Positions 7,170 through 21,315 of a stretch of DNA of 32,000 nt are shown one piece after another; the stretch's first letter is position 1, and each line of letters starts with the position of its first letter. Source of the DNA: Pyrodictium abyssi (GTDB taxonomy: Archaea > Thermoproteota > Thermoprotei_A > Sulfolobales > Pyrodictiaceae); contig NZ_AP028907.1 in assembly GCF_036323395.1 (NCBI RefSeq), forward strand, positions 480,001-512,000, written 5' to 3'. A model generated the notes under the pieces. That model did no database searches. It saw only the letters and a program-made list of their open reading frames with translations, and was not told where the DNA came from. The position numbers and the translations under genes are program-made.

Positions 7170-8366
7170 ATGGCTAGGGGCTCCATGAGGCTAGACGTTA
7201 GGCGATTTGGCCGTACTAGGCTGGCCGGTGCAGTAGTTGTAGCCGCTGCAGCGCTAGCAGCATTGATAGCGTTCGCCTCGTTAACGGTGAATATTGACGC
7301 GTCTAAGGCCTATGCGGAGCTCGCCGAGAGCGGGTACACTATTACCAGCAGCAAGCTGTTTAGCGAGAAGGTGCTGGGCGCTCAGGGACCAGTAGCCGTC
7401 ATGTTCCGCTCCGAGACGTGCCCGATGTGTGAGCGCATGTACCCCTACTGGAGGGTGGTCGAGGAAAAGGCTCTGGAGCTAGGCTTTAGAGCGTACGATG
7501 TGAAGCTGACTAGGGAGACTAGCCGGGTCTTCGACCGGTACAGGGTGCACGACCTCCCAACATTCATAGTGTTCTACGGCGGCGAGCCGGTTGCAAGGCA
7601 CGTCGGCGCGTTCACGCCGGATGACGGGAACATAACTAGGGCTATGATAGAGTGGGTAACGGCGTCGATCCAGGGTAGCCGGCTGGAAGCAGCTGTAGAG
7701 GAGCAGGGGCCCCAGGCCCAGCAGCCGGGCCAGGAGTCCTCGCCGTTCACTACTCTAGCAGCTTCCGTAGCCACGGCGTTGACTGCGGGTGTTGTGGCCT
7801 CGCTCTCTCCCTGCGTCCTACCGCTGCTAGTCACCAATAGCGTTGCCTTAGCCAGGCGCGGCAAGGGCCCGGGCATAGCGGGCTGCCTGGCGTGTAGCCT
7901 ATCCGCGTTTGCCGGCGTGATGGCTGTTGGCGTGGTCTTTCTCCTGGCTTCTAGCCTCCTCGCGGAGGTACAGACAGTGGTTATGAGCGTCGTAGCCGTG
8001 GCTGTCGTAGCGGCGGGCGTGTCGTCGCTGCTAGGCCTACCGGCCGAGATTCCGAGCTCGCGTAGAATCCGCTCCGGCAGCCTGGCCGTATTCTGCGGGC
8101 TCTACGGGTTCCTAGCTCTCCAGTGTAGCCTCCCCATAGTCGTCGGCGCGTTGCTACTAGTGCTGGGTAGCGGGGGCCCGGGCAAGGGCCTAGTGGTGCT
8201 TCTCGCTTTCTCGCTAGGCCTCTCCCTGCCGCTATCAGTAGCCCTGCACCTCGGCCCCCGTATGGCCGCTCTGACAGGCCGGGTAGAGATGCTCGAGAGA
8301 GCTGGCGGCGTGGTAATGGTCCTCGCCGGGGCGGTCCTCCTAGCCCATAGCCTTGGCCTCATCTAG
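7170..8366 (+). CDS. ccdA: Thioredoxin-domain / CcdA (DsbD-family) fusion, thiol-reductant transporter for cytochrome c maturation
   Basis: 398 aa. N-terminal TM anchor, then a thioredoxin fold with CPMC (residues 84-87, nt 7419-7430) and DLPTFIVF. A Gln/Pro linker follows, then a 6-TM CcdA core with both signature cysteines (LSPCVLPLL and LQCSLPIVV). It lies immediately upstream of ccmF. Confidence 0.85.
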   Translation: MARGSMRLDVRRFGRTRLAGAVVVAAAALAALIAFASLTVNIDASKAYAELAESGYTITSSKLFSEKVLGAQGPVAVMFRSETCPMCERMYPYWRVVEEKALELGFRAYDVKLTRETSRVFDRYRVHDLPTFIVFYGGEPVARHVGAFTPDDGNITRAMIEWVTASIQGSRLEAAVEEQGPQAQQPGQESSPFTTLAASVATALTAGVVASLSPCVLPLLVTNSVALARRGKGPGIAGCLACSLSAFAGVMAVGVVFLLASSLLAEVQTVVMSVVAVAVVAAGVSSLLGLPAEIPSSRRIRSGSLAVFCGLYGFLALQCSLPIVVGALLLVLGSGGPGKGLVVLLAFSLGLSLPLSVALHLGPRMAALTGRVEMLERAGGVVMVLAGAVLLAHSLGLI

Positions 8367-8384
8367 CACAGTGTCATAGCCCCC

Positions 8385-11384
8385 ATGCATGGGGTGGTGT
8401 CCTGGATGGCCTTGCACTATACTGGTATAATCCCCGCACTAGCTGCCCTCGTCTACACGACTGCACTGTACATGCTACTCCGCCGCGATATCGGCACAGC
8501 GTCTAGGCTGGTGAAGTGGGCTTCTATGTTCACGGTGGCGGGCTGGCTAGTATACCTGGTCCCGTTCGTTACGCTAGACTATAGCCTGGAAGAGGTCTTC
8601 TGGAACACAAGTCCCGGGCTCCCCCTCTGGATGAGGATAGCGTCGGCGTGGGCTGGCGGCGGTGGCAGCCTCTACTTGTTCGCGGCAATATCGGCAATAG
8701 CCACGCTCTATATTGCCCGTGGCCTAGCCGAGGCCAAGAAAAAGGATGTACTGGTTACCGGGGCAGCAGTAGTGACTCTGGCTGCTATAGTGGGCGCGTT
8801 TGCTAACGGCGCCTTCAGCGTCATGGAGGAGCGCCCTGCTAGTGGTGCGGGGCTTAACCCGCTGCTGAAGAGCCCGTGGCTCTACCCGCACCCCCTCAGC
8901 ACCTTCGGCGGCTACGCGCTACTCTCAATAGGCATGGTGGCGCTCCTCGCAGGCCTACGGCGCCGCGGCCTACTAGTCTACGAGCTTGGCTGGGCCCTCC
9001 TGACTCTCGGCATAATGCTGGGCGGGTACTGGAGCTACGAGACCTTCGGCTGGGGCGGCTACTGGGCCTGGGACCCCGTCGAGACAAGCGAGCTAATGGT
9101 GTGGCTCGCTGCTACACTGCTACCCCACGTCATGGTGGCTGTGCCGAGCCTAGCCGCGTTCACCGAGTACCTGACCCTATCTAGCGTGTTCCTCGCGATG
9201 TACGTGACGCGTAGCGGGCTCAGCCCGCTACACAGCTTCGCCGCGGCTAACCTAGGCGTGGCTATGCTACTAGTAGTTGCTCTAGTAGCGCTTTTCCTAG
9301 CGTTCCGCCGGCTAGGCGAGCTCCGCTTCCCCGGGCTAGATAGGGTGAAGAGAAGCCCCCTCCAGGCGGGCATGCTAGCGGCCACTATAGCGCTCTTCGC
9401 GGCAGCAATATTTGTCTACGCTACACTGCTCCTCCCGTCAATGCTCACAGTGGTAGGCGTCGAGGCTACAGTGCCGCAGATGCAGAGTGGTGTACGCTAC
9501 TTCCACCCCGTGCTATACCCGCTACTAGTAGCTATGCTGGCGGCGATACCGCTAGCGTTCATAGGTGACAGGATAGGATGGAGAGGCTACGCTGCGCTGC
9601 TAGCGGCGACGTCTATAGCCTCGGTTGTAGCCGGCGCTGCAGCGCTCAGCGGCGCTCTCATGCTGACTCCTCTCAGCAGTAGCGCGACTAACGCTATGAT
9701 GGCCTTCGGGCTCCCCTGGGCAGGCCTTGCCGCTGCAGCAGTACTACTCTACATAGCCTTGCGGCTACGCGGAGGCAAACTCGTATCGGAGCGCATGACT
9801 GCTATCAGTCTGCTACACCTAGGCCTCGCAGTCACCGTCATAGGTGTACTGCTCAGCGGTACGCACTCGTTCAACGAGGCCTACTTCATAGACGCTAGCA
9901 TGAAGCCCGGTGAGCCAGTCATCCTACCAAATGGCCTGAAGATAGAGCTGGTCGGCTACGAGTTCGAGCTAAGTAACTCCACGGTGGATATATACACGGG
10001 CTATGCGGGGCGCTCGCTCAGCTACATACTCGCCTGGGACGCGCTAGCAGCTCTAGCCTCGGACTACAGCAAGAAAATAGAGCAGGTGCACGAAGCCGAG
10101 AAGCTGCTAGGATCCAACGAGACACTGCGGAGCCTTGCTGAGCTAGCTGCAGAGACGCACATCTCCACAGTCAACGGCAGCATCGCCATAAAGGGCGCCG
10201 CCAGGGTAACCGGTATAGACATGTTCACGGGAGCCGAGACTCCAATAGCAGATAGTGCTGACATAACAATAGAGCTCGTAAACCCGAGTGTCACAGTAGC
10301 GATAGAACCCGTGCAGGACAGCATGGGTAGGGTTAAGTCAGCCAGGTTCCGCCTCTACGTAACAGCCGATGAGGCCGCCGTAGCGGGGCTCCCAGGAGGC
10401 AACATTACGGCACGGACGGTGCTCGACGTCACGTTCGCGGAGCCGGTACGGCTTACAGTGGGCAGAGTATCGCTAGAGATAAGCCACGTGTACGTCCTAG
10501 CGATGGCAACGGGGTCGACCGGCCACCCTGCTGTAGAGCAGCGCGACGGAGTGCTCGTCTATAAGCCAGCTCTACTGGTCCCAAGCGGCAGCATGGAGGT
10601 AGGGGCGCTAACCGTAGCAGTCCCGCTGGACGTGCCGGCCAGCATGGCAGGGTACGTGGAGAGCTGCCGCGACCCGCTGCTCCAGAGGCTGCTCGGGAGC
10701 AGCCTAGCAGAGGCACTCGCCAACGGCGCAGCGCTAAAGGCTCTAAACCCGCCCGATTGCCGGCCAACAGCAGAGACCCCCCATGGAATCTGCCCCGGCT
10801 ACATAGATGTGCCCCACACAGTCCCGGAGACAGCGTGGCTAGTCCTAAAGCTGCGCATAGAGCACGGCGGCGACGTCCGCGAGGAGACCGTTAGGCTACG
10901 CTTCGAGTCATATGGAGAGGTTCAGGGCATACACGGCCTAGTAACCAAGGTCATACACCCGCGGGTAGGGCTTACGGACGTCTACATAGCCATACACGCG
11001 CCAGTAGTCACACCGGACTGGGGGGTCACCGGGTACCACGAACTGCTGGTATACTATCTCCACGCCGTATACCAGTCGATGAACCTAACGCCTGCCCAGC
11101 GCATAGCTCTAGCAGCCCTGTTCGCGTCAGGCTACATGATGGATACCGCATCGTCGATAAACGATAGGATGCAGCGCAGCCTATTCCTAGAGCATGCTGC
11201 TATCGAGCTCTACCTGCTAGCGGAGGACTTCAGCCCCGAGAACTCGACTATAGCCAGGCAAGGGCTCCCTGTCCAGGTTAAGCTCGTCCCAGGCGTAGCC
11301 CTGGTATGGTACGGCGCCGTTATGATGGCCGTTTCGGCTGTCTATGCTGCTGTTGTTGCGGCCTATACAGCGAGGAGGAGTTAG
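8385..11384 (+). CDS. ccmF: Cytochrome c-type biogenesis protein CcmF (heme lyase) with greatly expanded extracytoplasmic domain
   Basis: 999 aa. WWD heme-handling motif WSYETFGWGGYWAWDPVETSELMVWL. Also present: upstream GLNPLLKSPWLYPHP (P-His1 region), downstream ATLLPH (P-His2), RSGLSPLHSF, and LLHLGLAVTVIGVLLSG (TM-His2 region). All are collinear with E. coli CcmF as I recall it. A C-terminal TM ends in ...ARRS. Confidence 0.9.
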   Translation: MHGVVSWMALHYTGIIPALAALVYTTALYMLLRRDIGTASRLVKWASMFTVAGWLVYLVPFVTLDYSLEEVFWNTSPGLPLWMRIASAWAGGGGSLYLFAAISAIATLYIARGLAEAKKKDVLVTGAAVVTLAAIVGAFANGAFSVMEERPASGAGLNPLLKSPWLYPHPLSTFGGYALLSIGMVALLAGLRRRGLLVYELGWALLTLGIMLGGYWSYETFGWGGYWAWDPVETSELMVWLAATLLPHVMVAVPSLAAFTEYLTLSSVFLAMYVTRSGLSPLHSFAAANLGVAMLLVVALVALFLAFRRLGELRFPGLDRVKRSPLQAGMLAATIALFAAAIFVYATLLLPSMLTVVGVEATVPQMQSGVRYFHPVLYPLLVAMLAAIPLAFIGDRIGWRGYAALLAATSIASVVAGAAALSGALMLTPLSSSATNAMMAFGLPWAGLAAAAVLLYIALRLRGGKLVSERMTAISLLHLGLAVTVIGVLLSGTHSFNEAYFIDASMKPGEPVILPNGLKIELVGYEFELSNSTVDIYTGYAGRSLSYILAWDALAALASDYSKKIEQVHEAEKLLGSNETLRSLAELAAETHISTVNGSIAIKGAARVTGIDMFTGAETPIADSADITIELVNPSVTVAIEPVQDSMGRVKSARFRLYVTADEAAVAGLPGGNITARTVLDVTFAEPVRLTVGRVSLEISHVYVLAMATGSTGHPAVEQRDGVLVYKPALLVPSGSMEVGALTVAVPLDVPASMAGYVESCRDPLLQRLLGSSLAEALANGAALKALNPPDCRPTAETPHGICPGYIDVPHTVPETAWLVLKLRIEHGGDVREETVRLRFESYGEVQGIHGLVTKVIHPRVGLTDVYIAIHAPVVTPDWGVTGYHELLVYYLHAVYQSMNLTPAQRIALAALFASGYMMDTASSINDRMQRSLFLEHAAIELYLLAEDFSPENSTIARQGLPVQVKLVPGVALVWYGAVMMAVSAVYAAVVAAYTARRS

Positions 11385-11543
11385 AGCGCCTGACGAGAAC
11401 GGTTCTAGCCTTCTTCCCCGGTGGACACGTATTTTTAATTAATTCTGCTCGATAATAATTTTTATTTGTTTCGGAGCCAATGATATTAAGTACTCCCAGG
11501 AGCAATCATACGATAGACGGCGAGTGGCGCGAGGAATCCGGCG

Positions 11544-12527
11544 ATGGATCGCACGAATCTCGTTATTCTAGTGTTACTCGTGGCCTTGGCGGTCTCAAAT
11601 GCGGCATGGATAACGCTATACAGTCACAGCAAGTACAACGTGGAGAACCTAATCAGCGAGAACCAGAGGCTAAGCCGGCAGCTAGAACTACTCGCTAGCA
11701 GGGTGAAAGAACTAGAAGACAACAACACAAAACTCCTGCTCCAGCTCCGCGACATAAGCGACCATTACAAGAGGCTCCTAGACCTAATACAACAGGCTAA
11801 CAGCACAATAGCGAATGCAGCCGTCGTGGCCAGGCTACTGGATAACATAAACGCGAGCCTAACAACGCTATACATGTACACCAATACTCACGCATACTAT
11901 ACCCCCAACGTGAGGAGTCTATTCACGCCGGGCACTGTAGCAGACCTAGTAGTGCCGATAACCGGGCATCCAATGTACAATAGGGAACATGCGCTCGAAG
12001 ACATGAGGAAGATGTATGACTGGGTGCAGGAGAACATACAGGACGCAGTGGACCACAACTTTGTTGCAATAAAGAGGCCGGAATACGTGGACATAAACGG
12101 TGCGAAGTACTTCTATAGCTTCCAGATAGACATAGTGGATAACTATATACAGTCACCGTCGGAGACCCTACAGCGCTTGGCAGGCGACTGCGAGGACCAG
12201 TCCATACTGCTAGCATCAATGTACAAGGTCTACCTGGACAATGTCGGCGACGCGTGGACGCTCTGCATGTTCTCGGAGAAGTACGACCACTGTATAGTCG
12301 TGGCCTGGGTGGCCCCCCAGAAGAAGTTCGTGATAGCTGATCCCACGCTGGACTACTATGCTGAGGCGGATAGTCTGCGCAGTGCTCTAGACGACTGGCT
12401 AGCCTACGTGGGGATGGAGATGAAGCAAATCCATAGAATGATAGTATTCAACAATAAAGACTACATAGAGGATGTGTCCTACAACGTGATACACGCTCTC
12501 GAGGAGAAGACTAGCAGACAAAGCTGA
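11544..12527 (+). CDS. Membrane-anchored transglutaminase-like cysteine protease superfamily protein
   Basis: 327 aa. N-terminal TM, a coiled-coil stretch (ENQRLSRQLELLASRVKELEDNNTKLLLQL), then a Cys-His-Asp core: GDCEDQSILLASMY (Cys216, nt 12189-12191), YDHCIVVAW, VIADPT. GC is lower than in the neighbours (about 50% in three hand-counted 60-nt lines). Confidence 0.78.
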   Translation: MDRTNLVILVLLVALAVSNAAWITLYSHSKYNVENLISENQRLSRQLELLASRVKELEDNNTKLLLQLRDISDHYKRLLDLIQQANSTIANAAVVARLLDNINASLTTLYMYTNTHAYYTPNVRSLFTPGTVADLVVPITGHPMYNREHALEDMRKMYDWVQENIQDAVDHNFVAIKRPEYVDINGAKYFYSFQIDIVDNYIQSPSETLQRLAGDCEDQSILLASMYKVYLDNVGDAWTLCMFSEKYDHCIVVAWVAPQKKFVIADPTLDYYAEADSLRSALDDWLAYVGMEMKQIHRMIVFNNKDYIEDVSYNVIHALEEKTSRQS

Positions 12528-12541
12528 GGAGGTGGACGGTT

Positions 12542-13276
12542 ATGCCCCGTATGGCCGCTAGCCTGGTCGCTATAGCGATAATCGTGCTAGCGAGCATCGC
12601 GACGCCTACACTAGCCGAGCAGACTATAAAGGTGAAGGTCTACCACGCTGAGCTAGGCCCGTTCATCCAGACGCTAGCCGATGGGCGCAGGATAGAGGTA
12701 GAGATAGACGTCTACTACCCTGACACACTCTTCTACAGAGGCCCCGAAGAGGGCCTAGGCACAGTGAATTTCACGATAACAACCAACTGGACCGGGCCGT
12801 GGGACGGCATAGTAACAGTGCAAGTAGTAGACCCGGGGTACCGGATTGACCCCACCACGCTCAAGCCTGTAGAGTCTATGAACGCGTGGGCGGAAGGGGG
12901 AGGCACTATAGGCACAGGGACTCTCCACATAGCAAGCGGGGCCTATACCGGCCCCGTCAAGAACGTAACTGTCGTCGTAAGGCCGCACTCGCGCTACTTC
13001 ACAGCGCCCGCCGGCGACTATGTCGCCCAGTACTTCTTCAAGGTGAGGCTCGCCTTCTTCAAGCCTAGCGGCAGCAAGGTGCTAGGTGGCGACGTCAACG
13101 TCTACACCGATAGCCAGACAGCGCCCGCAGTCAAAGTAGTCGTCATAAAGCAGCCTAAAGGGGACGAGGGCCTAGCAAGCTCGGTAGCGCTCAACGCTGC
13201 TATAGCTGCAGCAGTTGTAGCAACAGGGTACGCGGTAGTCGAGTATACCCTAAGGCGCAGGAAGGAGAAACACTAG
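12542..13276 (+). CDS. Secreted beta-rich protein with C-terminal membrane anchor, unknown function
   Basis: 244 aa. Signal peptide ...ASIATPTLA|EQ, C-terminal TM (AIAAAVVATGYAVVEY) and a basic tail RRRKEKH. A strong SD (GGAGGTG) precedes the ATG, 14 nt after the previous stop. Confidence 0.65.
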   Translation: MPRMAASLVAIAIIVLASIATPTLAEQTIKVKVYHAELGPFIQTLADGRRIEVEIDVYYPDTLFYRGPEEGLGTVNFTITTNWTGPWDGIVTVQVVDPGYRIDPTTLKPVESMNAWAEGGGTIGTGTLHIASGAYTGPVKNVTVVVRPHSRYFTAPAGDYVAQYFFKVRLAFFKPSGSKVLGGDVNVYTDSQTAPAVKVVVIKQPKGDEGLASSVALNAAIAAAVVATGYAVVEYTLRRRKEKH

Positions 13277-13647: not shown

Positions 13648-15636
13648 ATGCAGAAGCCTCTAGCCAAGGTAGTAGTCTTTTGGGTGATATCCATCTTCCT
13701 CCTCCCCAGCCTAGCGCCCCTAGCGCAGGCAGCGACATACAGCTGGGGCGAGGAGATCAGCCTCTCCGGTGTACAGCTCACGCAGGAGTCCAAGGACTGT
13801 GTAGAGTGTCACATGCGGGCGACACCCTTCATAGTGTACGACTGGTACAAGAGCAAGCACCGCATGGTTGGCGTGGGCTGCTACGAGTGCCACAGCGCTA
13901 AGCCCGGCACAAGGCCCGACGTCTACGAGCACTACGGCTACTACATAACGACACTAGTGACGCCTAAGCAGTGTGGCCGCTGCCACCCTGCGATAGCAGA
14001 GGAATTCCAGAAGAGCGTCCACGCGTTCGCCGGAGTACACGCCTACGTGCTAAAGGAGGAGCCAGCATACTGGATGATCCTGGCGAAGCAGTTTGGCTGG
14101 GACGAGCACTTCAAGGTACCAGCCGAGTACATTGAGACCGAGTGGGTACCCAAGATAGTGCGCGACTTCGTGGGTGACCAGAAGTACGGTAAGGCGGTGC
14201 TAGAGGAGGACCCGACCAACGCCATAATACCGTACAACCCGCTAGGCCTAAGCATTGACAACTACGTTGCCCAGAAGGCACTCTACATCTGGGGCATACG
14301 CGGCTGTCTAGGATGCCACGGCGTGCGCATGGACGTCAAGGACGCGTTCGCCTACCCGAGCCTAGACGAGCTAATGAAGTACATGAAGGAGGGCAAGGCC
14401 CCCGAGAAGGTAGTATACGACCCAGCATTCATGCACAACCACGGCATCGGCCGTGTGAACCCCGACGGCAGCCTAGGCAGCTGTGAGGCGTGCCACCCGT
14501 ACCACGGCTTCAGCGTAAAGATAGCCAGGAAGGGCGCCTACCAGGCATGTGGCCGCTGCCACACCGGCCCCGACCACCCGAACGACGAGCAGTGGAGCAA
14601 GAGCGTCCACGGCGCAATATTCTGGGGCGAGGCTGAGGACTGGGACTGGGACAAGCCGGTAAACAACTGGATGCCAGGCCGCGACTACAGGGCGCCGACA
14701 TGTGTAACCTGCCACATGGCCGCAGTGTTCAACGAGCGCGGTCAGGTCAAGTACGCTAGCAGCCACGACGTAGCCATAATAAGCAAGTTCAAGCTAGGCA
14801 AGTGGGTCTACACGCTACCACGTGTAGCAGGCCTACCCGACTTCGCCATACCGACAGCCACTGCGACACAGGCGCCGGTGTTCAAGAGTCCGACAACCGG
14901 TGACACAATAACGCTAGTATACCCAGAGCCCGACTGGAAGGTGCGCAGACAGAGAGCAATCGACATGTGTGCCCAGTGCCACACCAAGGAGTATGCAGCT
15001 GCATGGCTGAAGACCTACGACTGGATGATAATACTAGTAGACTACATGAGAGACGAGTACGTGCTAACCATAGCCAACATGCTGAAGGCTAAGGGCCTGT
15101 TTACGCCAATGGACGAGTGGATGGTGAGGAACCTAGGCGCTATGGCCAACAGGCCTACCAAGATGTCTGCAGCGCACTTCGGCCCCGACTTCACCTGGTG
15201 GGAGGGCATAATGCACTTCGCCGAGAAGATAGAGGAGTGGCTAATCGACGTCTACGAGAGGCCTGCTGTAGCCAAGAAGGCGCCAGAGATACGTGAGAAG
15301 ATTGAGGAGATACTGCCATGGTTCAGGGAGCAGTGGGAGGGCGAGGGCAGCACTGGTACAGTTCACACCCTAGCAGAGGTGAAGACAACTCTAGCTAAGG
15401 CCGTCGAGGTACCGGGCATGAAGGCCTATGCGGAGAAGGTGGAGAAGCTAGAGACGCCAGCTAAGCCACTAGTAACTAAGGCTGCTGTAACCACCGTAGG
15501 CGAGGTAGGCGAGCACAGCCTAGCACTACCGGGCGATGAGGCCAGTGTGGAGATGCCAGTGGCTATCTCTGCTGTGTTCCCGGCAGCGCCTCTACTACTA
15601 GTACTAGTGTCCTTTAGGAAGCGTGTAGCAGCCTAA
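13648..15636 (+). CDS. Octaheme cytochrome c of the hydroxylamine oxidoreductase (HAO) family, signal peptide plus C-terminal TM anchor
   Basis: 662 aa with eight CxxCH motifs: CVECH, CYECH, CGRCH, CLGCH, CEACH, CGRCH, CVTCH, CAQCH. Flanking context is collinear with Nitrosomonas HAO as I recall it: KDCVECH..TP..V..W..S.H; C..CH..H.FS; CHTGPDH....W..S.HG; APTC..CHM. Signal peptide ...LAQA|AT. The C-terminal hydrophobic helix plus FRKRVAA resembles the HAO C-terminal anchor. Confidence 0.9.
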   Translation: MQKPLAKVVVFWVISIFLLPSLAPLAQAATYSWGEEISLSGVQLTQESKDCVECHMRATPFIVYDWYKSKHRMVGVGCYECHSAKPGTRPDVYEHYGYYITTLVTPKQCGRCHPAIAEEFQKSVHAFAGVHAYVLKEEPAYWMILAKQFGWDEHFKVPAEYIETEWVPKIVRDFVGDQKYGKAVLEEDPTNAIIPYNPLGLSIDNYVAQKALYIWGIRGCLGCHGVRMDVKDAFAYPSLDELMKYMKEGKAPEKVVYDPAFMHNHGIGRVNPDGSLGSCEACHPYHGFSVKIARKGAYQACGRCHTGPDHPNDEQWSKSVHGAIFWGEAEDWDWDKPVNNWMPGRDYRAPTCVTCHMAAVFNERGQVKYASSHDVAIISKFKLGKWVYTLPRVAGLPDFAIPTATATQAPVFKSPTTGDTITLVYPEPDWKVRRQRAIDMCAQCHTKEYAAAWLKTYDWMIILVDYMRDEYVLTIANMLKAKGLFTPMDEWMVRNLGAMANRPTKMSAAHFGPDFTWWEGIMHFAEKIEEWLIDVYERPAVAKKAPEIREKIEEILPWFREQWEGEGSTGTVHTLAEVKTTLAKAVEVPGMKAYAEKVEKLETPAKPLVTKAAVTTVGEVGEHSLALPGDEASVEMPVAISAVFPAAPLLLVLVSFRKRVAA

Positions 15637-15652
15637 GGGGGCGGTGAGGGCT

Positions 15653-15677
15653 GGGGAGGAGACCCTCCCCTCTTTTT
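15653..15677 (+). terminator. Hairpin plus T-tract terminator after the octaheme gene
   Basis: GGGGAGG (15653-15659), loop AGAC, CCTCCCC (15664-15670), then TCTTTTT (15671-15677). It begins 17 nt after the TAA stop. Confidence 0.6.
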
Positions 15678-15891
15678 ACCGCGGCCTAGGCCCCTCCTGC
15701 GCCCCTATCGGCGCCGCCGTGAATCCACCTCGGCCTGTCTTAATATTTGTGTTCGTTAGCCTCTGGCAGCGTGTATACGTCTAGCCGATAGCCCTGGCTC
15801 GGGGCTGTTTCTTAGCTGGAGCGTTGGCGTCGAAGCGTTTAGCTTTATCAAGGGTTACAGATGCTCTTGACCACTGGTAGGGGGAGGCTTA

Positions 15892-17772
15892 TTGTACTGG
15901 GAGCCCGTGCTGTACCTAGCTCTGCTGTCCGAGGCTGTTGCGGCAGCACTTGCTATCCGCAGGGGGATGTGTGAGGGCTATGATAAACAGCTCGAGTCGA
16001 GCCCCATATACCGTGTAGGCTTTGTGCTTGTGTTGATGTCTTTTATCCTCGCTATGCGCTTCGACGTGATGGTGACAATACCCAGCCTTATGCTCCTAGC
16101 TTCCAGCCTAGCTGTACTAGCCGGAACCAGGCTCAGAGCCAGGATGAGCCCGGTTGAGGTACTTGGCTCGGCTATAGCGTTCTACTCTTTCGCACTTGCT
16201 TCACTTGCCGCCCGCGGCGCAGTGCTTGACATAGATCCGCGTGGTAAGGGGCTGCTGCCCTGGATTCTGGTGGCGCTTTCGGCTGGGCTAGGCCTCTTGT
16301 CGGCTCTATCTACGCTAGAGAAGCCCCGCAGGGGCATAGCTGCTTTCATGGGGCTGCTAAGCGGCGTGGGCCTCGTGGCTCTTGGCTACTGGCTGCTCAT
16401 AGAGACGCGTGTCGGAACGCCATTGTACAGTGATGCTCTAGGCTCTGCACTGCTTGCTCTGCTGCTCACCGGCGTCGCTATAGCATCTGGGCTGTCTCCG
16501 TACCTCGTCATGGCAGCTGGTATACTGGCCGGTCTCTTTGCTAGCCGCTCGCTACTGGCAGGCGGTGTGCCATACATCGCGTGTACTGGTAACTGTGGCT
16601 CGCTCGCTGTGGCGTGGCTTATCTTCTCGGTTATCGTGGCTCTGCCCCGGCTATACCTAGAGGCTGCTGAGATGCATGATAGGATACGCTCAGCGGACGT
16701 AAACGTGGCCCTATCACCCCCTGTGCTGGCATCTGCTTCAGTGCTTGCCGCTGGGATTGCAGCGTGGGTGGCGGCTCAAGGCACTGTGGGTATAGCCCCT
16801 ATGGCGGTCGTTGGTATACTTGCTGCAGCTGCTGCTGTCGGCTCTGCTGCCGTAGCTGTACTCCTCGTTGGGGGCGCTGTTGCTGTCTACAGCCCGGTGC
16901 TAGGCCTCATCGCGGCTGCTGCTGTAGCTCTTGTATTCACAGTGCTGCGGGGCCGAAGCATCGGCTTCTTCTCGGCCCCGAAGAGCGTCCTCCCCGGGCT
17001 ACTGCTCGTAGCCGTAGGGCTTGCAGCTGGAGGCTACATCGTCGCTACCCTGGGCCACGTGTCCGAAGCCAAGGCGTCTATTGAGGTGTCCGGCCTAGGC
17101 TCCCTGGCTCCCATACAGCCGCCGAGCGATGAAGCTACCCATGCGTTCTTCCAGCTCTACCTCGGCGTCAAGAACGAGACTATACTCTACGCTATCCTCG
17201 AGCCAACTGTGGGTGAAGAGGAGGCTCTAAGGATGGTTGAATTTGTCCATGCTATCAGGGTTGCTGCCGAGAAGAGAGGCATCCAGGACCCCTACAATAT
17301 AACCGAGCTTGACATACCACGCGAGATGCCGAGCCTGAAAGCGGTACTCGATGTTAATGGCATGCACGTCCCCGTGGAGATACCTGCCTCTAGTGTACTG
17401 TACGGCCATCCCTTCAATACTAGGGTCATCCAGGCTGGGCTAGACCTCGTCTCTGTAGGGCTTCCCGGTAATGCTACGAGCGCGCTGACTAGCGCCTACC
17501 TTGGTATGATCTCTGACCCGGGCCTCGTGGATGGGGATGCTCTGCGCTACTCCTTATTCGCGGCCATGGCTGTTAGCTGGAGGGAGACGGGCTCGCTCAA
17601 CATGACGGCTCAGCTGATGTTCGACATGTTGCTGGGCAACGTTTCCGGGTCCGGCACCGTAGTGGCGGGTGTTGATATTGCTAGGGCTCCGTTAGGGGTG
17701 CTAGCGCTAGCAGTATACGGGGCGTGTATAGTTGCCGCTCCCTTGGCTCCTATTTTTGCGCGCCGTAACTAA
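15892..17772 (+). CDS. Polytopic membrane protein with about 200-aa extracytoplasmic domain and C-terminal TM, unknown function
   Basis: 626 aa with a TTG start preceded by GGAGG (15883-15887). About 12 Ala/Leu/Gly-rich TM helices occupy the first 390 aa or so. A soluble domain with N-x-T/S sequons (NET, NIT, NAT, NMT, NVS) follows, then a terminal TM and ARRN. No heme or Fe-S motif is seen. Confidence 0.7.
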   Translation: MYWEPVLYLALLSEAVAAALAIRRGMCEGYDKQLESSPIYRVGFVLVLMSFILAMRFDVMVTIPSLMLLASSLAVLAGTRLRARMSPVEVLGSAIAFYSFALASLAARGAVLDIDPRGKGLLPWILVALSAGLGLLSALSTLEKPRRGIAAFMGLLSGVGLVALGYWLLIETRVGTPLYSDALGSALLALLLTGVAIASGLSPYLVMAAGILAGLFASRSLLAGGVPYIACTGNCGSLAVAWLIFSVIVALPRLYLEAAEMHDRIRSADVNVALSPPVLASASVLAAGIAAWVAAQGTVGIAPMAVVGILAAAAAVGSAAVAVLLVGGAVAVYSPVLGLIAAAAVALVFTVLRGRSIGFFSAPKSVLPGLLLVAVGLAAGGYIVATLGHVSEAKASIEVSGLGSLAPIQPPSDEATHAFFQLYLGVKNETILYAILEPTVGEEEALRMVEFVHAIRVAAEKRGIQDPYNITELDIPREMPSLKAVLDVNGMHVPVEIPASSVLYGHPFNTRVIQAGLDLVSVGLPGNATSALTSAYLGMISDPGLVDGDALRYSLFAAMAVSWRETGSLNMTAQLMFDMLLGNVSGSGTVVAGVDIARAPLGVLALAVYGACIVAAPLAPIFARRN

Positions 17773-17850
17773 ATTAAATGAATAATTGTTTGTGCTGAAT
17801 GTATCGATATTTTTGAGACAAAGGCTAAAAGTATTGTCAATGCTTTTTCC

Positions 17851-17857
17851 TATAAAA
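17851..17857 (+). promoter_or_regulatory. Putative TATA box of the 13-14-heme cytochrome gene
   Basis: TATAAAA lies 23-29 nt upstream of the ATG at 17880, inside a 107-nt AT-rich intergenic region. GGAGGGG at 17864-17870 could alternatively act as an SD. Confidence 0.45.
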
Positions 17858-17879
17858 CCGGCGGAGGGGTGAAGCCGCC

Positions 17880-19151
17880 ATGGACGCTAGGCAAGCTGCT
17901 AGAACAGTGGTAATAGTAGCTGTATTCTTAGTAGCGCTGCTAGGCTACTGGCGGCTGACGTTACCAGGCTACTTTGAAGGCATGAGCCTCTGTGGCGAGG
18001 GCTGCCATGTAACCAACACCCTCGACTACAAGAAGATTACACACCCGTTCTGGTGCATTGGCTGCCACGGATTCGGTGTCAAGAGCGAAATTATGCCGGG
18101 GATACCGCTGCAGCGAGACCCCGAGATAGAGATGCTTGTCGAGGAGCACGGTGAATGCGTCATGTGCCACAGTGTGCCCGGAGAATTCCACTGGAAGCAC
18201 ATCAACGCCACCGAGGAAGAACTAGCCAAACTAGGGCTAGAGCGTCCAGTGCAGTGTACAGACTGCCACACCACAGCCTATCACGGCGGCCACAAGGATA
18301 TGCCTAAAGACGACTCGTGTCTCAAGTGCCATGATACTGAGAAGCTCCATCCAGACATGAATAAGAAGCTTGTCTCAGCGTGTACCAAGTGCCACTCCGA
18401 GGAGCCCGCGGTAGACTGGACTGTGTTCAGAAAGGGCCAGCTGGGCTATGGCTTCGTAGCCGATGCTGGCCTAGCTCTAGCCTCCGACATAGGTGTCGTG
18501 AAGTCTGTGGCTCCTGGCTGCCTCCTATGCCATAACACGCCGGAGGCACAGGGGCACATAAAGCATGTAGGCAAGAAGTACGAGGGTAGAGAAGTAGACT
18601 GTCTCGATTGCCACAGGAACGATATACCGCACGGCGAGAAAGTGGGAACCAGTGTATGTCTCGACTGCCACCAGCCCGGTGAAGTAAAGTGCCACGATGT
18701 TAACTTCGAAGAGTATCTCGTCGACTGCTACAAGTGCCACGGCGGCTTCAAGCTCGCCAACGAGACGCTATACCTAACCGGAGTCGGGTGTAGGGGCTGC
18801 CACGCTGATACACTCAAGAAGATAACAAGCCTAGGACTACACCTCAAACACACAAAGTACTTCAACTGCGATAAGTGCCACGACATCGAATCTGGCAGCC
18901 ACAAAGCCTTCGTAGAGTCTGCCGGTGATGTGGAGAAGTGTCTAGAATGCCATACAGAGGCAGGAGGCGTAAAGCCAGAAGCACTCAAGGATATCAAATC
19001 CACGGTTGCGCTAACCTTCAGCGAGGACATAAAGCACGTAGACCTCGTGAAGAGGGCCGACGGTAACTGCTTCAAGTGCCACGATGAATGGTATGTCAGC
19101 GGCAAGCCCAAGGTATTCTACTACAAGGTGCAAGATAGTGATAAGGGCTAG
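17880..19151 (+). CDS. Membrane-anchored multiheme cytochrome c (13 CxxCH + 1 CxxxCH)
   Basis: 423 aa with an N-terminal TM (TVVIVAVFLVALLGYW). Motifs: CGEGCH (CX3CH, nt 17991-18008), then CIGCH, CVMCH, CTDCH, CLKCH, CTKCH, CLLCH, CLDCH, CLDCH, CYKCH, CRGCH, CDKCH, CLECH, CFKCH. About 29 His in total, enough for bis-His ligation of every heme. Confidence 0.92.
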   Translation: MDARQAARTVVIVAVFLVALLGYWRLTLPGYFEGMSLCGEGCHVTNTLDYKKITHPFWCIGCHGFGVKSEIMPGIPLQRDPEIEMLVEEHGECVMCHSVPGEFHWKHINATEEELAKLGLERPVQCTDCHTTAYHGGHKDMPKDDSCLKCHDTEKLHPDMNKKLVSACTKCHSEEPAVDWTVFRKGQLGYGFVADAGLALASDIGVVKSVAPGCLLCHNTPEAQGHIKHVGKKYEGREVDCLDCHRNDIPHGEKVGTSVCLDCHQPGEVKCHDVNFEEYLVDCYKCHGGFKLANETLYLTGVGCRGCHADTLKKITSLGLHLKHTKYFNCDKCHDIESGSHKAFVESAGDVEKCLECHTEAGGVKPEALKDIKSTVALTFSEDIKHVDLVKRADGNCFKCHDEWYVSGKPKVFYYKVQDSDKG

Positions 19152-19172
19152 CTTTTGCGCTACTTGTCCCGC

Positions 19173-19200
19173 CTTATGGTTAGAAACTTATGGTTAGAAA
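19173..19200. repeat. Perfect 14-bp tandem direct repeat (CTTATGGTTAGAAA x2)
   Basis: Read directly: 19173-19186 equals 19187-19200. It lies in the 80-nt gap between the multiheme gene stop (19151) and the next start (19232). Confidence 0.9.
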
Positions 19201-19231
19201 AGGATGTGTCCCCGGGGGTGCCGTGTAGGCC

Positions 19232-19978
19232 TTGAGCACGGTTAGGACCGAGGCCGCGGGTAGCCAGGCCCCCAGCTGGCTCCAGGAGCATCTGTGGCTC
19301 CGCCTACGCGCCTTATTCGACCTAGTGCTGCAGCTCAGCGTGCTCCGGCGCCGCCGTGATATAGGCGAATGGCTGGTTGTATGGCTTACATACCTGGGCA
19401 TAGTCGGCGCCATACTAATGGCCATAGTAACGGCTGCGACGAGGGGCGTAATCCTAGCCGCGAACACGGTTCTAAGGCCGCATGCGCTGCCGATAATCAG
19501 CCCAGAGCTCGAGAAGATATTCATAAGCTGGCCTCAGCTAGCCATAGGTATGGGGTACCACGCGCACATAATTACAGCGCTATACTTCGCAGCCCCAGCG
19601 TACACAGCCGCCTTCATCGCAGCCTTCCTGTTGAAGGACGAGTGGCTGCGCAAATTCCTATTCCCAAGGGGGATAAACATTAGGGATCTGTCTGACCACC
19701 TGCTGCTAGTGCTGAGCTTCGCCACGGCCGTCATGGTCGCGGTGATAGCGCCCAGGATGGCTGCTAGCGGTGCACTAGTGCCGGGGCTCCAGGCGCTAGC
19801 CCCGCATATAGCAGTAGGGACCTTCTGGATAATCTACTCCCTAGCGATACGCGGGCTGGCATACCGCATCGTCGGCGCGGCACTAGGACTGCTATACGTG
19901 GTGATCTTCAACCACTACCCGAGGGAGGCCTTCCGGGACCTGTTCGAGGAGGACCCCTGGGTAAGCCTACTACGCTAA
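19232..19978 (+). CDS. His-rich 5-TM membrane protein (candidate b-type cytochrome / quinol-interacting subunit; function unproven)
   Basis: 248 aa with a TTG start of uncertain position. About five TM helices carry His at or near the helix ends (GYHAHIITALYF, DHLLLVLSF, APHIAVGTFW, NHYP). It is co-oriented with and immediately downstream of the multiheme cytochrome. Confidence 0.55.
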   Translation: MSTVRTEAAGSQAPSWLQEHLWLRLRALFDLVLQLSVLRRRRDIGEWLVVWLTYLGIVGAILMAIVTAATRGVILAANTVLRPHALPIISPELEKIFISWPQLAIGMGYHAHIITALYFAAPAYTAAFIAAFLLKDEWLRKFLFPRGINIRDLSDHLLLVLSFATAVMVAVIAPRMAASGALVPGLQALAPHIAVGTFWIIYSLAIRGLAYRIVGAALGLLYVVIFNHYPREAFRDLFEEDPWVSLLR

Positions 19979-20232
19979 CAGGGTAGTGCCGAGCCCAATA
20001 GGCTGAATGGTTTTTGCACCCACGTATCCGCTTAAGCTAGGCGTGGCCCCACCTGTTCCCCTGTGCAGGTCCTCAGTATGCCTCCAGGGGCCCTTGTTTA
20101 CGCGGTAAGGGCTCATGATGTGTCTCTGGTTGTGCAGCCGCGAGCCTCTTAGCTGGTAGGGCCCACGGCTGTGCCTGGCACCAACTCCTCCCACCGGGGC
20201 CGGCTAGCTGCCTAGACAAGGGCTGTAGGGCT

Positions 20233-21315
20233 ATGCTGTGGTTTGTGCTCACGACTGGCGCCTGTAACCTGCGCTGTAGGTACTGCGGCGGCGGGTTCCC
20301 GGCCGAGTACTCTCCGCCGCGCCCCCTGTACCGGGCCGAGGAGCTCGTGGAGACCATTGCGCGGCTTGACCCGGACCCGGTGGTCTTCTTCTACGGGGGC
20401 GAGCCCTTGCTGAACCCGAGGCTGATAATGGAGGTAATGGACCTCCTGCCGGGGGCCAGGTACGGGATACAGACGAACGGCCTCCTCTACCGCCGGCTCC
20501 CCGAGGAGTACTGGGCGAGGTTCAGCCGTGTCCTCCTCAGCATAGACGGCGTCGAGAAGGTCACGGACAAGTGGAGGGGCCGGGGCGTCTACCGCCGCGT
20601 GCTGGAGGCCCTAGGGTTCCTCCTGGAGCTGCGTAGGCGCCGTGGCGGCCCCAGGGTCCTGGTCGCCAGGATGGCGGCGACCCGTGACACCGTGATAGAC
20701 CGTGACGTGCTCCACCTCCTCGGCCTCGGGTTCGACAAGGCCCACTGGCAGCTCGACGCTGTCTGGAGCGAGCCCTGGCCCCTAGGCGAGTGGGCCCGCG
20801 GGATATACCTCCCGGGGCTCCGGAGGCTCGCCGAGTGGGTCGCCCGGAGGCCCTGGGAGAGGCTCAGCAGGGTAGCCCCGTTCCACGGGATAGTCTCGGC
20901 GCTCTACAGCGGGGGCTACCGCTGGTACCCCTGCGGCGCTGGCCGCGGCGCGGTGGCGGTGAACACGGATGGGAGGATACTGGCGTGCCCGATAGCGGTC
21001 CGCGAGCAGTGGGCGGTGCTGGGTAGGCTGGGCGAGTGGAGCGGCAGGCTCGCGCCCAGCAGCATGCTGCCGGAGAGGTGCCGCCGGTGCAGCTACCTGC
21101 CCCTTTGCGGGGGCCGCTGCCTCTACGCCCAGCTGGAGTCGGATTACTGGCCCCGCGAGCTACTCGAGGAGCTGGACAGGGTGACCCGTAGGACTATAGA
21201 CATTGTTCTCTCGGTCGTGGTGCCGGCGGTGGAGAGGGCTGTGGAGAAAGGGCTTATGAGCCCGGGTGACGTCTTCTACGACCCCCTGGAGGAGTCCACC
21301 GAGGTCATACCCTAG
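20233..21315 (+). CDS. Radical SAM enzyme with C-terminal SPASM/twitch-type auxiliary cluster domain
   Basis: 360 aa. CNLRCRYC (CxxxCxxC, nt 20263-20286), GGEPLL. C-terminal Cys clusters YPCGAGRGAVAVNTDGRILACP and CRRCSYLPLCGGRC are typical of SPASM maturases and AhbD/NirJ-type enzymes. Confidence 0.85.
   Translation: MLWFVLTTGACNLRCRYCGGGFPAEYSPPRPLYRAEELVETIARLDPDPVVFFYGGEPLLNPRLIMEVMDLLPGARYGIQTNGLLYRRLPEEYWARFSRVLLSIDGVEKVTDKWRGRGVYRRVLEALGFLLELRRRRGGPRVLVARMAATRDTVIDRDVLHLLGLGFDKAHWQLDAVWSEPWPLGEWARGIYLPGLRRLAEWVARRPWERLSRVAPFHGIVSALYSGGYRWYPCGAGRGAVAVNTDGRILACPIAVREQWAVLGRLGEWSGRLAPSSMLPERCRRCSYLPLCGGRCLYAQLESDYWPRELLEELDRVTRRTIDIVLSVVVPAVERAVEKGLMSPGDVFYDPLEESTEVIP

Follow-up and report, generated by a model that had tools for sequence, protein, structure and literature searches.

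The closest described system is the putative multiheme cytochrome c respiratory complex of Pyrodictium delaneyi, which is encoded by Pyrde_0784-0787, was named 'Mcc' and has a homologous locus, Pyrfu_0785-0788, in Pyrolobus fumarii (Kashyap & Holden 2021, PMC8105010). In P. delaneyi, the octaheme protein Pyrde_0784 was identified in a heme-stained band and was about 60-fold up on ferrihydrite relative to nitrate (log2FC 5.93, padj 0.002). Significant regulation was reported for the octaheme protein only; Pyrde_0780 (log2FC +2.4 on ferrihydrite, padj 0.033), Pyrde_0785 and Pyrde_0787 showed an upward trend of about 5-fold on ferrihydrite, and Pyrde_0782 and Pyrde_0786 were detected by proteomics (PMC8105010). 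A link between Mcc abundance and Fe(III) oxide is known for P. delaneyi only (PMC8105010). In the model of Kashyap and Holden, Mcc was drawn as the link from methylmenaquinol to the Frc or Nap enzymes, and the actual contact with Fe(III) was assigned to molybdopterin enzymes, not to Mcc (PMC8105010).

Here, we compared with this system a locus in a 32 kb window, which is the whole stretch of DNA that was analysed. Proteins encoded in the window were exact matches to Pyrodictium abyssi BES80956-BES80966, in agreement with the archaeal context assigned in a preliminary description of the sequence. Nine co-oriented open reading frames (ORFs) on the plus strand, with correctly placed boundaries, occupy positions 7170-21315, and the features of the locus are as follows.

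7170-8366, plus strand: Trx-CcdA fusion, 398 aa, orthologue of Pyrde_0780 (PF00085, DsbD-like NCBIfam match, positions of TM helices and cysteines)
8385-11384, plus strand: CcmF-type heme lyase, 999 aa (PF01578, BLASTP against E. coli CcmF)
11544-12527, plus strand: LapG-like/transglutaminase-fold protein, 327 aa, first cassette gene (alignment, profile against PDB)
12542-13276, plus strand: small anchored protein, 244 aa, second cassette gene (signal peptide, C-terminal TM anchor)
13540-13600, plus strand: promoter-like stretch rich in A+T (TTTAAAT/ATTAAAT), 55-110 nt before the octaheme gene (read from sequence)
13648-15636, plus strand: HAO/IhOCC-type octaheme cytochrome c, 662 aa, orthologue of Pyrde_0784 (PF13447, 4QO5, eight CxxCH)
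15650-15680, plus strand: G+C-rich hairpin followed by T5, just past the octaheme stop codon, candidate terminator (read from sequence)
15892-17772, plus strand: polytopic (12-TM) membrane protein, 626 aa, orthologue of Pyrde_0785 (TM prediction; no family match)
17880-19151, plus strand: 14-site multiheme cytochrome c, N-terminally anchored, 423 aa, orthologue of Pyrde_0786 (heme motifs)
19232-19978, plus strand: five-TM (5-TM) membrane protein, 248 aa, orthologue of Pyrde_0787 / Pyrfu_0785 (alignment, TM prediction)
20233-21315, plus strand: radical SAM/SPASM (rSAM) protein, TIGR04084, AF0577-type (NCBIfam)

Boundaries and domain matches agreed with the earlier inventory of a Trx-CcdA, a CcmF, an HAO-family octaheme, a 13+1-heme protein, two membrane proteins and an rSAM/SPASM enzyme. 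The earlier figure of 21-22 heme sites also matched our count (8 CxxCH, 13 CxxCH and one CX3CH), and every motif was invariant in orthologues from six lineages, which argues against a chance occurrence. The P. abyssi genes are direct orthologues of the P. delaneyi Mcc genes in the same order, with amino acid identities of 94% for the octaheme protein, 64-65% for the 12-TM protein, 74% for the 14-heme protein and ~84% for the 5-TM protein, and the P. delaneyi sequence (CP013011) is collinear with window positions 5982-25348 (~19 kb). The cluster is real, and it is the orthologue of the published 'Mcc', a candidate iron-oxide respiration complex; it represents no new phenomenon and had already been reported through the publication of Pyrde_0784-0787 (PMC8105010). 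Our analysis departs from the published picture in three respects: the paper treats four genes, whereas synteny adds two upstream to give a six-gene unit; its heme counts for Pyrolobus are 11 and 6, whereas we counted 8 and 13+1; and it left out the adjacent second CcmF/Trx-CcdA pair. The hosts are different species: P. abyssi is a fermentative or sulfur-reducing heterotroph and, unlike P. delaneyi, is not known to reduce or respire iron.

The six genes at 11544-19978 (LapG-like, secreted anchored, octaheme, 12-TM, 14-heme and 5-TM) form a cassette whose order and orientation are kept in Pyrodictium, Pyrolobus fumarii and three lineages of metagenome-assembled genomes (MAGs), that is, in at least five lineages, with completely different flanks. 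The earlier interpretation held in part: relatives keep both cytochromes together with both membrane proteins, but the maturation and rSAM genes are not conserved with them outside Pyrodictium. The two genes at 11544-13276, previously passed over as filler, belong to the conserved unit by synteny. On these comparisons, the six-gene cassette is specific to Pyrodictiaceae. Topology prediction placed all six products in the membrane or outside the cytoplasm; since every product has a signal peptide or a TM anchor or is polytopic, the hemes are predicted to lie outside the cytoplasmic membrane. It is highly improbable that the nine genes are merely adjacent, with cytochromes, membrane proteins and maturation genes acting independently, given that order and orientation of the six core genes stay the same between unrelated flanks and that all their products are extracytoplasmic or membrane proteins. 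Such independence would fit several intergenic gaps of 80-370 nt with promoter-like and terminator-like elements of their own, the lack of synteny of the maturation and rSAM genes outside Pyrodictium, and the differing codon composition of the rSAM gene.

The rSAM protein matched TIGR04084 with 415.3 bits (cut-off 225) and has the CxxxCxxC cysteines C11/C15/C18 plus six C-terminal cysteines. The GC3 of its gene (0.886) resembles that of the downstream purine genes (0.86-0.88), compared with 0.61-0.73 for the cassette, and neither Pyrolobus nor any MAG lineage has the gene beside the cassette. It is probably an unrelated neighbour outside the system. At the cassette, AT-rich stretches similar to that upstream of the octaheme gene precede the first gene (11432-11465) and the 14-heme gene (17773-17860), and we read them as putative promoter-like elements. 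The hairpin behind the octaheme gene (GGGGAGGAGACCCTCCCCTCTTTTT) is a candidate terminator that would make this gene a transcription unit of its own, consistent with the regulation of Pyrde_0784 separately from Pyrde_0785 and Pyrde_0787 (PMC8105010).

The octaheme protein has a Sec signal peptide and eight CxxCH motifs that do not vary among orthologues from six lineages; a linker of ~65 poorly conserved residues leads to its C-terminal TM anchor. It matched PF13447 (E=1e-17, 64.6 bits; cut-off 21.9) and is 74-75% identical to the Pyrolobus and MAG orthologues. The best solved structure was 4QO5, the octaheme cytochrome IhOCC of Ignicoccus hospitalis (Igni_0955; E=8e-47 by sequence and 3.9e-53 by profile); the profile also matched 6H5L, 6T5E, 4N4J, 1FGJ and 6HIF, with closeness decreasing from IhOCC to 6H5L and then 6T5E. 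The eight CxxCH motifs follow the same order as in IhOCC, local identity is strong around hemes 5-7, and the invariant N264-H265 pair before heme 5 corresponds to an N-H pair in IhOCC, with which the Pyrodictium protein also shares membrane association. Alignment with IhOCC and with further members of the HAO family that lack the Tyr cross-link (Kuenenia 6H5L; HAOr) was partial, in four blocks. No invariant Tyr was found between residues 537 and 606, and the alignments to 1FGJ, 4N4J and 6HIF stop short of the Tyr position; the P460 cross-linking Tyr after heme 8 is probably absent. By alignment, the protein is nearest to the non-cross-linked, reductive HAO relatives (PMC9250108). It differs from IhOCC in its C-terminal TM anchor on a ~65-residue stalk and in its place in a six-gene cassette, of which the 5-TM member has no relatives outside Pyrodictiaceae.

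IhOCC and the epsilonproteobacterial Hao-type nitrite reductases have nitrite/hydroxylamine reductase activity in vitro. The cassette could be primarily a nitrite/hydroxylamine reductase for ammonification or N-oxide detoxification, in which the octaheme protein would be the enzyme and the 14-heme and membrane proteins its quinol-linked supply, comparable to NrfA with NrfH or NrfBCD. In favour of such a role, Pyrolobus fumarii, for which no NrfA is recognised, has the cassette and reduces nitrate to ammonium. The same holds for the shared N-H pair, the lack of an invariant Tyr in the expected cross-link region, and the nature of the best solved homologue, since IhOCC is an octaheme nitrite reductase without the P460 cross-link (PMC9250108). 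P. delaneyi strain Hulk has no other obvious nitrite reductase, and its authors named the octaheme gene as the closest candidate, but nitrite did not serve as an electron acceptor for this strain (PMC5556600). Moreover, growth of P. delaneyi on nitrate lowered the octaheme protein about 60-fold relative to ferrihydrite (PMC8105010) and P. abyssi is not known to reduce nitrate, and we consider this role unlikely. The substrate had been called unreadable from the sequence; the question is not entirely open, as proteomics tie the octaheme subunit to growth on ferrihydrite (PMC8105010).

In the 14-heme protein, a CX3CH motif (CGEGCH, residues 38-43) directly follows the TM helix and is succeeded by 13 CxxCH motifs. 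The 13+1 motifs were invariant in orthologues from six lineages, as were 13 further histidines outside the motifs, enough for bis-His wiring. We predict a heme wire in which every heme is hexacoordinate; a heme at the CX3CH site is putative. Similarity to HmcA in the PDB was no more than weak (E=0.011). Membership in the NapC/NirT/NrfH family was considered and rejected: the NCBIfam NrfH match (E=0.04) covered residues 323-403 only, and the comparison with E. coli NapC by hhalign had a non-significant probability of 58% over a stretch that is not N-terminal. NrfH and CymA likewise have an N-terminal TM helix followed by the first heme site, a likeness that is likely a functional analogy. In the Pfam and NCBIfam searches, the cassette showed no sequence or profile similarity to NapC/NrfH/CymA, NrfD/PsrC, CbcL/ImcH or the di-heme cytochromes b (FdnI/NarI). 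The earlier statement that no NrfH/NapC, NrfD or bc1 component is obvious was borne out, none being recognisable in profile searches.

Both membrane proteins also lie outside well-characterised families, as had been supposed, with negative Pfam, NCBIfam and PDB searches for each. The 12-TM protein has ~11-12 TMs, a conserved extracytoplasmic domain of ~200 aa (residues ~395-590), a C-terminal TM and no invariant histidines; its AF2 model (pLDDT 35) was unusable, and its family is an apparent orphan. Throughout the family of the 5-TM protein, four histidines are invariant: H110 and H112 (outer end of TM2), H156 (start of TM3) and H192 (start of TM4). The low-confidence AF2 model of this protein (pLDDT 63) gave no Foldseek match, and an exhaustive hmmsearch of 1.84 billion proteins retrieved four representatives of the family, which is a true orphan restricted to Pyrodictiaceae. 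An identity as NrfD/PsrC or cytochrome b (FdnI/NarI/HydC) was rejected for both proteins: in neither alignment did the members have a Pfam family in common at E<=10, and NCBIfam and PDB gave no match. A small polytopic protein with invariant histidines likewise recalls the bacterial quinol dehydrogenase modules of extracellular or periplasmic electron transfer, again likely by functional analogy; the four histidines here include an i/i+2 pair, and their spacing is unlike that of known di-heme cytochromes b. The 5-TM protein is a candidate cofactor- or quinol-binding subunit.

The cassette might instead be, as modelled by Kashyap and Holden, a general quinol:cytochrome c oxidoreductase hub that replaces bc1/ACIII in Pyrodictiaceae and feeds periplasmic-side reductases (molybdopterin 'Frc', Nap, sulfur/thiosulfate) while having no terminal acceptor itself. 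Conservation of the cassette across species with very different electron acceptors would suit such a hub, as would the presence of the membrane subunits and CcmF under both P. delaneyi growth conditions and the placement of Mcc in the published model (PMC8105010), and cytochrome b and Rieske proteins are missing from Pyrolobus and Hyperthermus (Kletzin et al.). However, it would be odd for a pure relay to include an HAO-type protein whose catalytic heme is presumably open, the octaheme protein alone responds strongly to the growth condition, which points to an output role, and no quinol-binding family is recognisable; we regard a hub function as decidedly improbable.

The first cassette gene encodes an N-terminal TM anchor, a coiled coil and a putative transglutaminase-fold/LapG-like cysteine-protease domain, and it precedes the octaheme gene in every lineage compared. 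A Cys216-His249-Asp266 triad was invariant in the alignment, Pfam matches to DUF553/Transglut_core were weak and under the cut-offs, and the profile matched the PDB entries 4u65_E ('putative cysteine protease', E=0.0027) and 4fgo. The triad and the weak profile similarity are shared with bacterial transglutaminase-like cysteine proteinases of the LapG type (4U65, 4FGO), and the Pyrodictium protein is extracytoplasmic and membrane-tethered. It differs from them in being archaeal, in the fusion of its domain to a coiled coil and in a similarity below family thresholds. The small anchored protein has a conserved soluble domain with zero cysteines, is 46-54% identical to its Pyrolobus and MAG orthologues and matched no known family in Pfam or NCBIfam.

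Upstream of the cassette, Trx-CcdA is an accessory maturation gene. Its product comprises an N-terminal TM anchor, an outward-facing thioredoxin domain (PF00085, E=1e-7) with a C84-P-M-C87 (CPMC) motif, and a putative six-TM CcdA/DsbD-like reductant channel with PCxxP-like cysteines C215 (SPCVLP) and C319 (QCSLP). Residues 161-382 weakly matched the DsbD-like region of TsoB (NCBIfam, E=7e-7), and Pfam DsbD gave no match at E<=0.1. The CcmF protein matched PF01578 (69.5 bits; cut-off 29.9) and was 28% identical to E. coli CcmF (BLASTP, E=2e-31). His169, His248, His283 and His478 align with E. coli H173, H261, H303 and H491, so that all four are kept, and the WWD motif (GWGGYWAWDPVE) is conserved and also aligns with the E. 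coli protein. Its TIGR00353 match (NCBIfam, E=8.5e-35, 120.7 bits) was under the curated cut-off of 569, residues 501-999 had no Pfam match, and the topology has ~14 TMs, an extracytoplasmic C-terminal domain enlarged by an insertion of ~350 aa, and a last TM. From its sequence, this CcmF is a divergent archaeal form marked by the ~350 aa insertion.

The locus had been called self-contained, which is not borne out: these are the only two System I components present, and no ORF of the 32 kb window has a CcmA, CcmB, CcmC or CcmE domain. In P. delaneyi Hulk, ccmF occurs twice and the main ccmA/B/C/F/CcdA cluster lies elsewhere (PMC5556600), and the CcmF/CcdA beside its cassette is a second, paralogous pair. 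Trx-CcdA and CcmF adjoin the cassette in Pyrodictium only, compared with Pyrolobus and the MAG lineages. Dedicated heme lyases are known from E. coli, where NrfEFG serves the CxxCK heme of NrfA, and from Wolinella, with CcsA isoenzymes for CxxCK and CX15CH. As in those systems, a second CcmF-type lyase and a thiol-reductant supplier stand beside particular multiheme cytochromes, with a general ccm cluster elsewhere. The parallel to their non-standard motifs would be the invariant CX3CH of the neighbouring Pyrodictium cytochrome, for which the need for a special lyase would be speculative. In contrast to them, the archaeal CcmF bears its unique ~350 aa insertion, and Pyrolobus and the MAGs have the same CX3CH without an adjacent CcmF.

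Starting from the gene identities, heme-site conservation, synteny, Mcc orthology and absence of known-family membrane subunits, which we regard as established, we consider it reasonably probable that the cassette is an outward-facing, quinol-fed, membrane-anchored electron-transfer complex for the reduction of Fe(III) oxide or N-oxides, for which we infer quinol entry, electron order, acceptor and accessory roles. Electrons from the (methyl)menaquinol pool would leave at the membrane surface, entering through the four-histidine 5-TM protein or the membrane-proximal CX3CH heme of the 14-heme cytochrome, with the 12-TM protein as a scaffold. They would pass along the all-hexacoordinate 14-heme wire to the HAO/IhOCC-type octaheme protein, which, on its flexible C-terminal stalk and under separate regulation, would be the reductive output module. 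Its acceptor may be Fe(III) oxide, directly or via other reductases, and possibly nitrite or hydroxylamine. The LapG-like and small anchored proteins would serve as accessory subunits that are conserved and may act in processing or tethering, and the Pyrodictium Trx-CcdA and CcmF a dedicated thiol-reduction/heme-attachment unit that would depend on CcmABC(E) encoded elsewhere.

Several observations count against this proposal. Pyrolobus, a carrier of the cassette, respires nitrate, thiosulfate or O2, P. abyssi is not known to respire iron, and the published model gives Fe(III) contact to molybdopterin enzymes. Significant regulation is confined to the octaheme protein, the histidine spacing of the 5-TM protein departs from that of di-heme cytochromes b, and the low-confidence models of both membrane proteins lend no fold-level backing to a quinol site.

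Tentatively, the 5-TM protein, with or without the 12-TM protein, might even represent an unrecognised type of quinol dehydrogenase or transmembrane electron-entry module, unrelated to NapC/NrfH, NrfD and cytochrome b, that feeds a 22-heme extracellular wire at up to 110 C; the divergent CcmF and Trx-CcdA might in addition be the first archaeal client-dedicated heme lyase, possibly for CX3CH, and the LapG-like protein might govern whether the stalked octaheme protein is released or tethered. The analysis delimits a six-gene conserved unit, sets apart the accessory second CcmF/CcdA and the unrelated rSAM neighbour, and singles out the four invariant histidines of the 5-TM protein and the membrane-proximal CX3CH heme as putative sites of quinol oxidation. 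For the Pyrodictiaceae, the cassette is the leading published candidate for moving respiratory electrons out of the membrane without bc1, NrfH/NapC or NrfD.

Translation of the region at 7170-21315 gave nine ORFs, all on the + strand, in full agreement with the co-oriented genes of the preliminary description, whose gene calls were accurate. Motif counting also confirmed its 21-22 heme sites: eight CxxCH motifs in the product of 13648-15636, 13 CxxCH and one CX3CH in the product of 17880-19151, and none in the other ORFs. Based on a hydropathy scan, each product encoded within 7170-19978 is a membrane or exported protein. The window proteins were identified as P. abyssi BES80956-BES80966 by exact match. 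tRNA and Rfam scans across the window returned no matches.

ORFs at 7170-21315, with the amino acid identity of syntenic homologues to the window protein for six of them
7170-8366, +, Trx-CcdA fusion protein
8385-11384, +, CcmF-type heme lyase
11544-12527, +, 327-aa protein, 44-50%
12542-13276, +, 244-aa protein, 47-54%
13648-15636, +, octaheme protein, 74-78%
15892-17772, +, 12-TM protein (626 aa), 28-46%
17880-19151, +, 14-heme cytochrome, 40-53%
19232-19978, +, 5-TM protein (248 aa), 58-65%
20233-21315, +, radical SAM/SPASM protein

Gene order in relatives was assessed from the genomic contexts of 5-TM homologues and by local BLAST. The order 327-aa, 244-aa, octaheme, 12-TM, 14-heme, 5-TM was kept in P. 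delaneyi, Pyrolobus fumarii (5-TM gene Pyrfu_0785), a 'Hyperthermus' MAG and two more MAG lineages. A scan of genome contigs with the 5-TM profile found only three loci, and a metagenome scan with the octaheme profile found one, from a lineage already represented and with an identical cassette order on its contig. Mere adjacency of genes that form no functional island is contradicted by this synteny, and we regard it as very improbable. The conservation covers only part of the proposed island, however: the six cassette genes were conserved, but the Trx-CcdA, CcmF and radical SAM genes adjoin them in the two Pyrodictium species only. In Pyrolobus, the cassette is flanked upstream by fibrillarin and downstream, on the opposite strand, by a B12-radical SAM gene that is unrelated. 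In all MAG lineages, the gene upstream of the cassette encodes a polytopic protein (717-776 aa) that is conserved among them and absent from the window (8-2338, 195-2348, 426-2624 and 3724-5955 in loci L003, L006, L008 and L011, respectively). This protein had a weak GT-C/PMT_2 glycosyltransferase likeness (E=6.7e-5, under the cut-off) and could glycosylate exported cassette proteins; as it had no similarity to the window CcmF, it was rejected as a CcmF substitute.

Third-position GC content (GC3) was 0.61-0.73 for the genes at 7170-19978, 0.886 for the radical SAM gene, 0.86-0.89 for the downstream purine genes and 0.76-0.80 for the pilus genes. GC3 thus agrees with synteny in placing the radical SAM gene, which resembles the purine genes, as a neighbour outside the unit, and its inclusion in the island was not upheld. 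Its product matches TIGR04084 over the full length with 415 bits (cut-off 225), and a search of the literature on TIGR04084/AF0577 found nothing relevant. The 5-TM and radical SAM genes are separated by a 254-nt gap with 62% GC (19979-20232), which yielded neither a convincing ORF nor a tRNA or Rfam match; GenBank numbering implies one annotated gene, BES80964, within it. Lateral transfer of the cassette was considered because of its lower GC3. The low GC3 of the cytochrome and maturation block could reflect differences in expression level or in codon usage, or a lateral origin within Pyrodictiaceae. Compared with the P. delaneyi locus, the octaheme region (13521-15637) had 88% nucleotide identity and the genes on either side 70-73%, indicating that the octaheme gene is under very strong constraint or was recently exchanged between the species.

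The island had been called self-contained, yet CcmA, CcmB, CcmC and CcmE domains were absent from every ORF in the window. Pfam and NCBIfam show Trx-CcdA to be a fusion of a thioredoxin domain, which carries a CPMC motif, with a CcdA/DsbD-like part of six TM segments. CcmF is a 999-aa heme lyase of the CcmF/NrfE type (28% identity to E. coli CcmF, E=2e-31). It has the WWD motif and each of the four functional histidines; its outer domain carries an insertion of ~350 aa without any family match. Of two ccmF genes in P. delaneyi strain Hulk, one adjoins these cytochromes, and its counterpart sits in a main cluster alongside ccmA, ccmB, ccmC and a CcdA gene (Demey et al, 2017, PMC5556600). A plausible role for the second CcmF/Trx-CcdA pair is to handle a heavy heme load or to serve the non-standard CX3CH site. 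It need not adjoin the cassette, because Pyrolobus lacks the pair at that place. The supposed island breaks down into a conserved six-gene cassette, an accessory pair of maturation genes specific to the lineage, and a neighbouring gene that is unrelated. Just upstream of Trx-CcdA, at 5952-6926 (+), two small genes encode a soluble 98-aa protein and an Ala/Leu-rich polytopic membrane protein of 223 aa. Neither had a Pfam match; P. delaneyi has conserved counterparts of both at the corresponding place (68% and 60% identity, respectively), and the two might belong to a Pyrodictium-specific maturation module.

The octaheme protein (662 aa) belongs to the HAO family (PF13447), supported by a weak match to an HDH model. 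It has a Sec signal peptide, eight invariant CxxCH motifs and ten more invariant histidines, and its N264-H265 pair aligns with the N-H of IhOCC. The conserved core stops near residue 570 and is followed by a variable linker, ~65 residues long, that leads to a C-terminal TM helix. The closest solved relatives were IhOCC (4QO5) and then Kuenenia 6H5L and 6T5E, whereas alignment to the oxidative HAO and HDH enzymes was confined to the region of hemes 5-7. No invariant tyrosine was found at the expected place of the P460 cross-link, where the alignment stops short of that position; judged from the sequences, the cross-link tyrosine is probably absent. The 14-heme cytochrome (423 aa) is a generic c3/c7-type multiheme protein. 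Its N-terminal TM anchor ends in an invariant YW...PGY, and the CX3CH site (CGEGCH, residues 38-43) lies eight residues further on. All 14 sites and 13 extra histidines are invariant in the family, which fits a predicted fully hexacoordinate wire. The anchored, membrane-proximal heme arrangement is similar to that of NrfH or CymA, but without family similarity; membership of NapC/NrfH was rejected, as an hhalign comparison with E. coli NapC was not significant.

The suggestion that the membrane partners might be new held up, as the 626-aa and 248-aa products matched no Pfam, NCBIfam or PDB entry; for the 244-aa product, too, no family was found in Pfam or NCBIfam and no match among PDB profiles. 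Scanned exhaustively with HMMER, a set of 1.84 billion representatives yielded only four members of the 5-TM family. Six histidines of the 5-TM protein are invariant among close relatives, and four of them (H110, H112, H156, H192) stay so once the pair of most divergent members is included. Its AlphaFold2 model (12 sequences) had a pLDDT of 63 and a pTM of 0.43, Foldseek found nothing below E=1.7 in the PDB, and no fold was assigned. The 12-TM protein has no invariant histidine in its membrane part and a well-conserved extracytoplasmic domain of ~200 aa. Its AlphaFold2 model (5 sequences, pLDDT 35) was unusable, and a homologue search with a widened alignment gave the same four Pyrodictium proteins among the matches listed, the Ala-rich sequence having probably saturated the 8000-candidate word filter. 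The 327-aa protein has an invariant Cys216-His249-Asp266 triad and a weak match to LapG-type cysteine proteinases; transglutaminase-like matches in Pfam were sub-threshold only.

The octaheme protein and P. delaneyi Pyrde_0784 fall in one 90% cluster. Pyrde_0784-0787 were named 'Mcc' and described as a putative respiratory complex of multiheme cytochromes c that is membrane-bound and unique to Pyrodictiaceae (Kashyap & Holden, 2021, PMC8105010). The locus is therefore the orthologue of a published candidate. Pyrde_0784 was present only in the heme-stained band of ferrihydrite-grown cells (PMC8105010). In the supplementary tables of that study, log2 fold changes on ferrihydrite versus nitrate were 5.93 for Pyrde_0784 (octaheme; padj 0.002), 2.43 for Pyrde_0780 (Trx-CcdA; padj 0.033), 2.39 for Pyrde_0785 (12-TM; padj 0.27), 2.26 for Pyrde_0787 (5-TM; padj 1) and 0.34 for Pyrde_0781 (CcmF; not significant), and Pyrde_0782 and Pyrde_0786 were detected without quantification. 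That the cassette is a nitrite/hydroxylamine reductase system, a reading supported by the kinship of the octaheme protein with IhOCC, is unlikely given that this protein was 60-fold less abundant on nitrate in P. delaneyi. Strain Hulk does not respire nitrite (PMC5556600). In the window, AT-rich promoter-like stretches precede the first cassette, octaheme and 14-heme genes, and a hairpin followed by T5 lies directly past the octaheme stop codon. Several transcription units, with predicted breaks near 13300, 15670 and 17800, are conceivable, which would fit separate regulation of Pyrde_0784. The Pyrolobus fumarii orthologues (L004, 4775-10001, CP002838) have 8 and 13+1 heme motifs by our count, in contrast to the '11- and 6-heme' proteins stated previously (PMC8105010). 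In a Logan Pyrolobus assembly (L005), the octaheme gene is broken into ORFs of 418 and 231 aa; this split is probably artefactual, through misassembly or a frameshift.

The island is directly preceded by an archaeal type IV pilus/archaellum-like assembly cluster.

Pilus/archaellum-like cluster
347-5734, -, two T2SSF-type membrane proteins, a T2SSE ATPase, a 237-aa protein without known family and a pilin-like protein

The pilin-like protein has an archaeal class III signal peptide and a CARDB-like domain, and the GC content of its gene (0.52) is markedly below that of its neighbours. The cluster is not shared with P. delaneyi, because collinearity begins only at 5982. Fe(III) reduction in P. 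delaneyi needs direct mineral contact; surface-filament genes may or may not lie beside the cytochromes by chance. Further downstream, the lysine exporter LysO has two homologues, one on each strand, with a cupin gene between them: a 102-aa N-terminal-like fragment below the Pfam cut-off (27350-27658, +) and a full-length protein of 197 aa (28057-28650, -). The low-GC end of the window (30510-31759, +; 0.52-0.55) has an AAA_15/SMC_N-type ATPase ORF of 228 aa that appears truncated or split and, after it, a 179-aa ORF of no family; these could be what is left of a defence-type ATPase system, or its beginning.

On the best-supported reading, the cassette encodes an outward-facing complex for respiratory electron transfer. 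Electrons from quinol would enter at the membrane surface, either through the four-histidine 5-TM protein or through the membrane-proximal CX3CH heme of the anchored 14-heme cytochrome, and would run along the 14-heme wire to the stalked HAO-type octaheme protein. This subunit would serve as a regulated output module, linked to ferrihydrite respiration in P. delaneyi. A general quinol:cytochrome hub, as drawn in the published model, seems to us somewhat less probable even than the nitrite/hydroxylamine reductase. To the published description we add the definition of the six-gene unit, corrected Pyrolobus heme counts, the four invariant histidines of the 5-TM protein, an intact LapG-like triad and the paralogue status of the maturation pair. 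The remaining interest of the locus lies in its two orphan membrane subunits and in the entry of quinol electrons into the complex.
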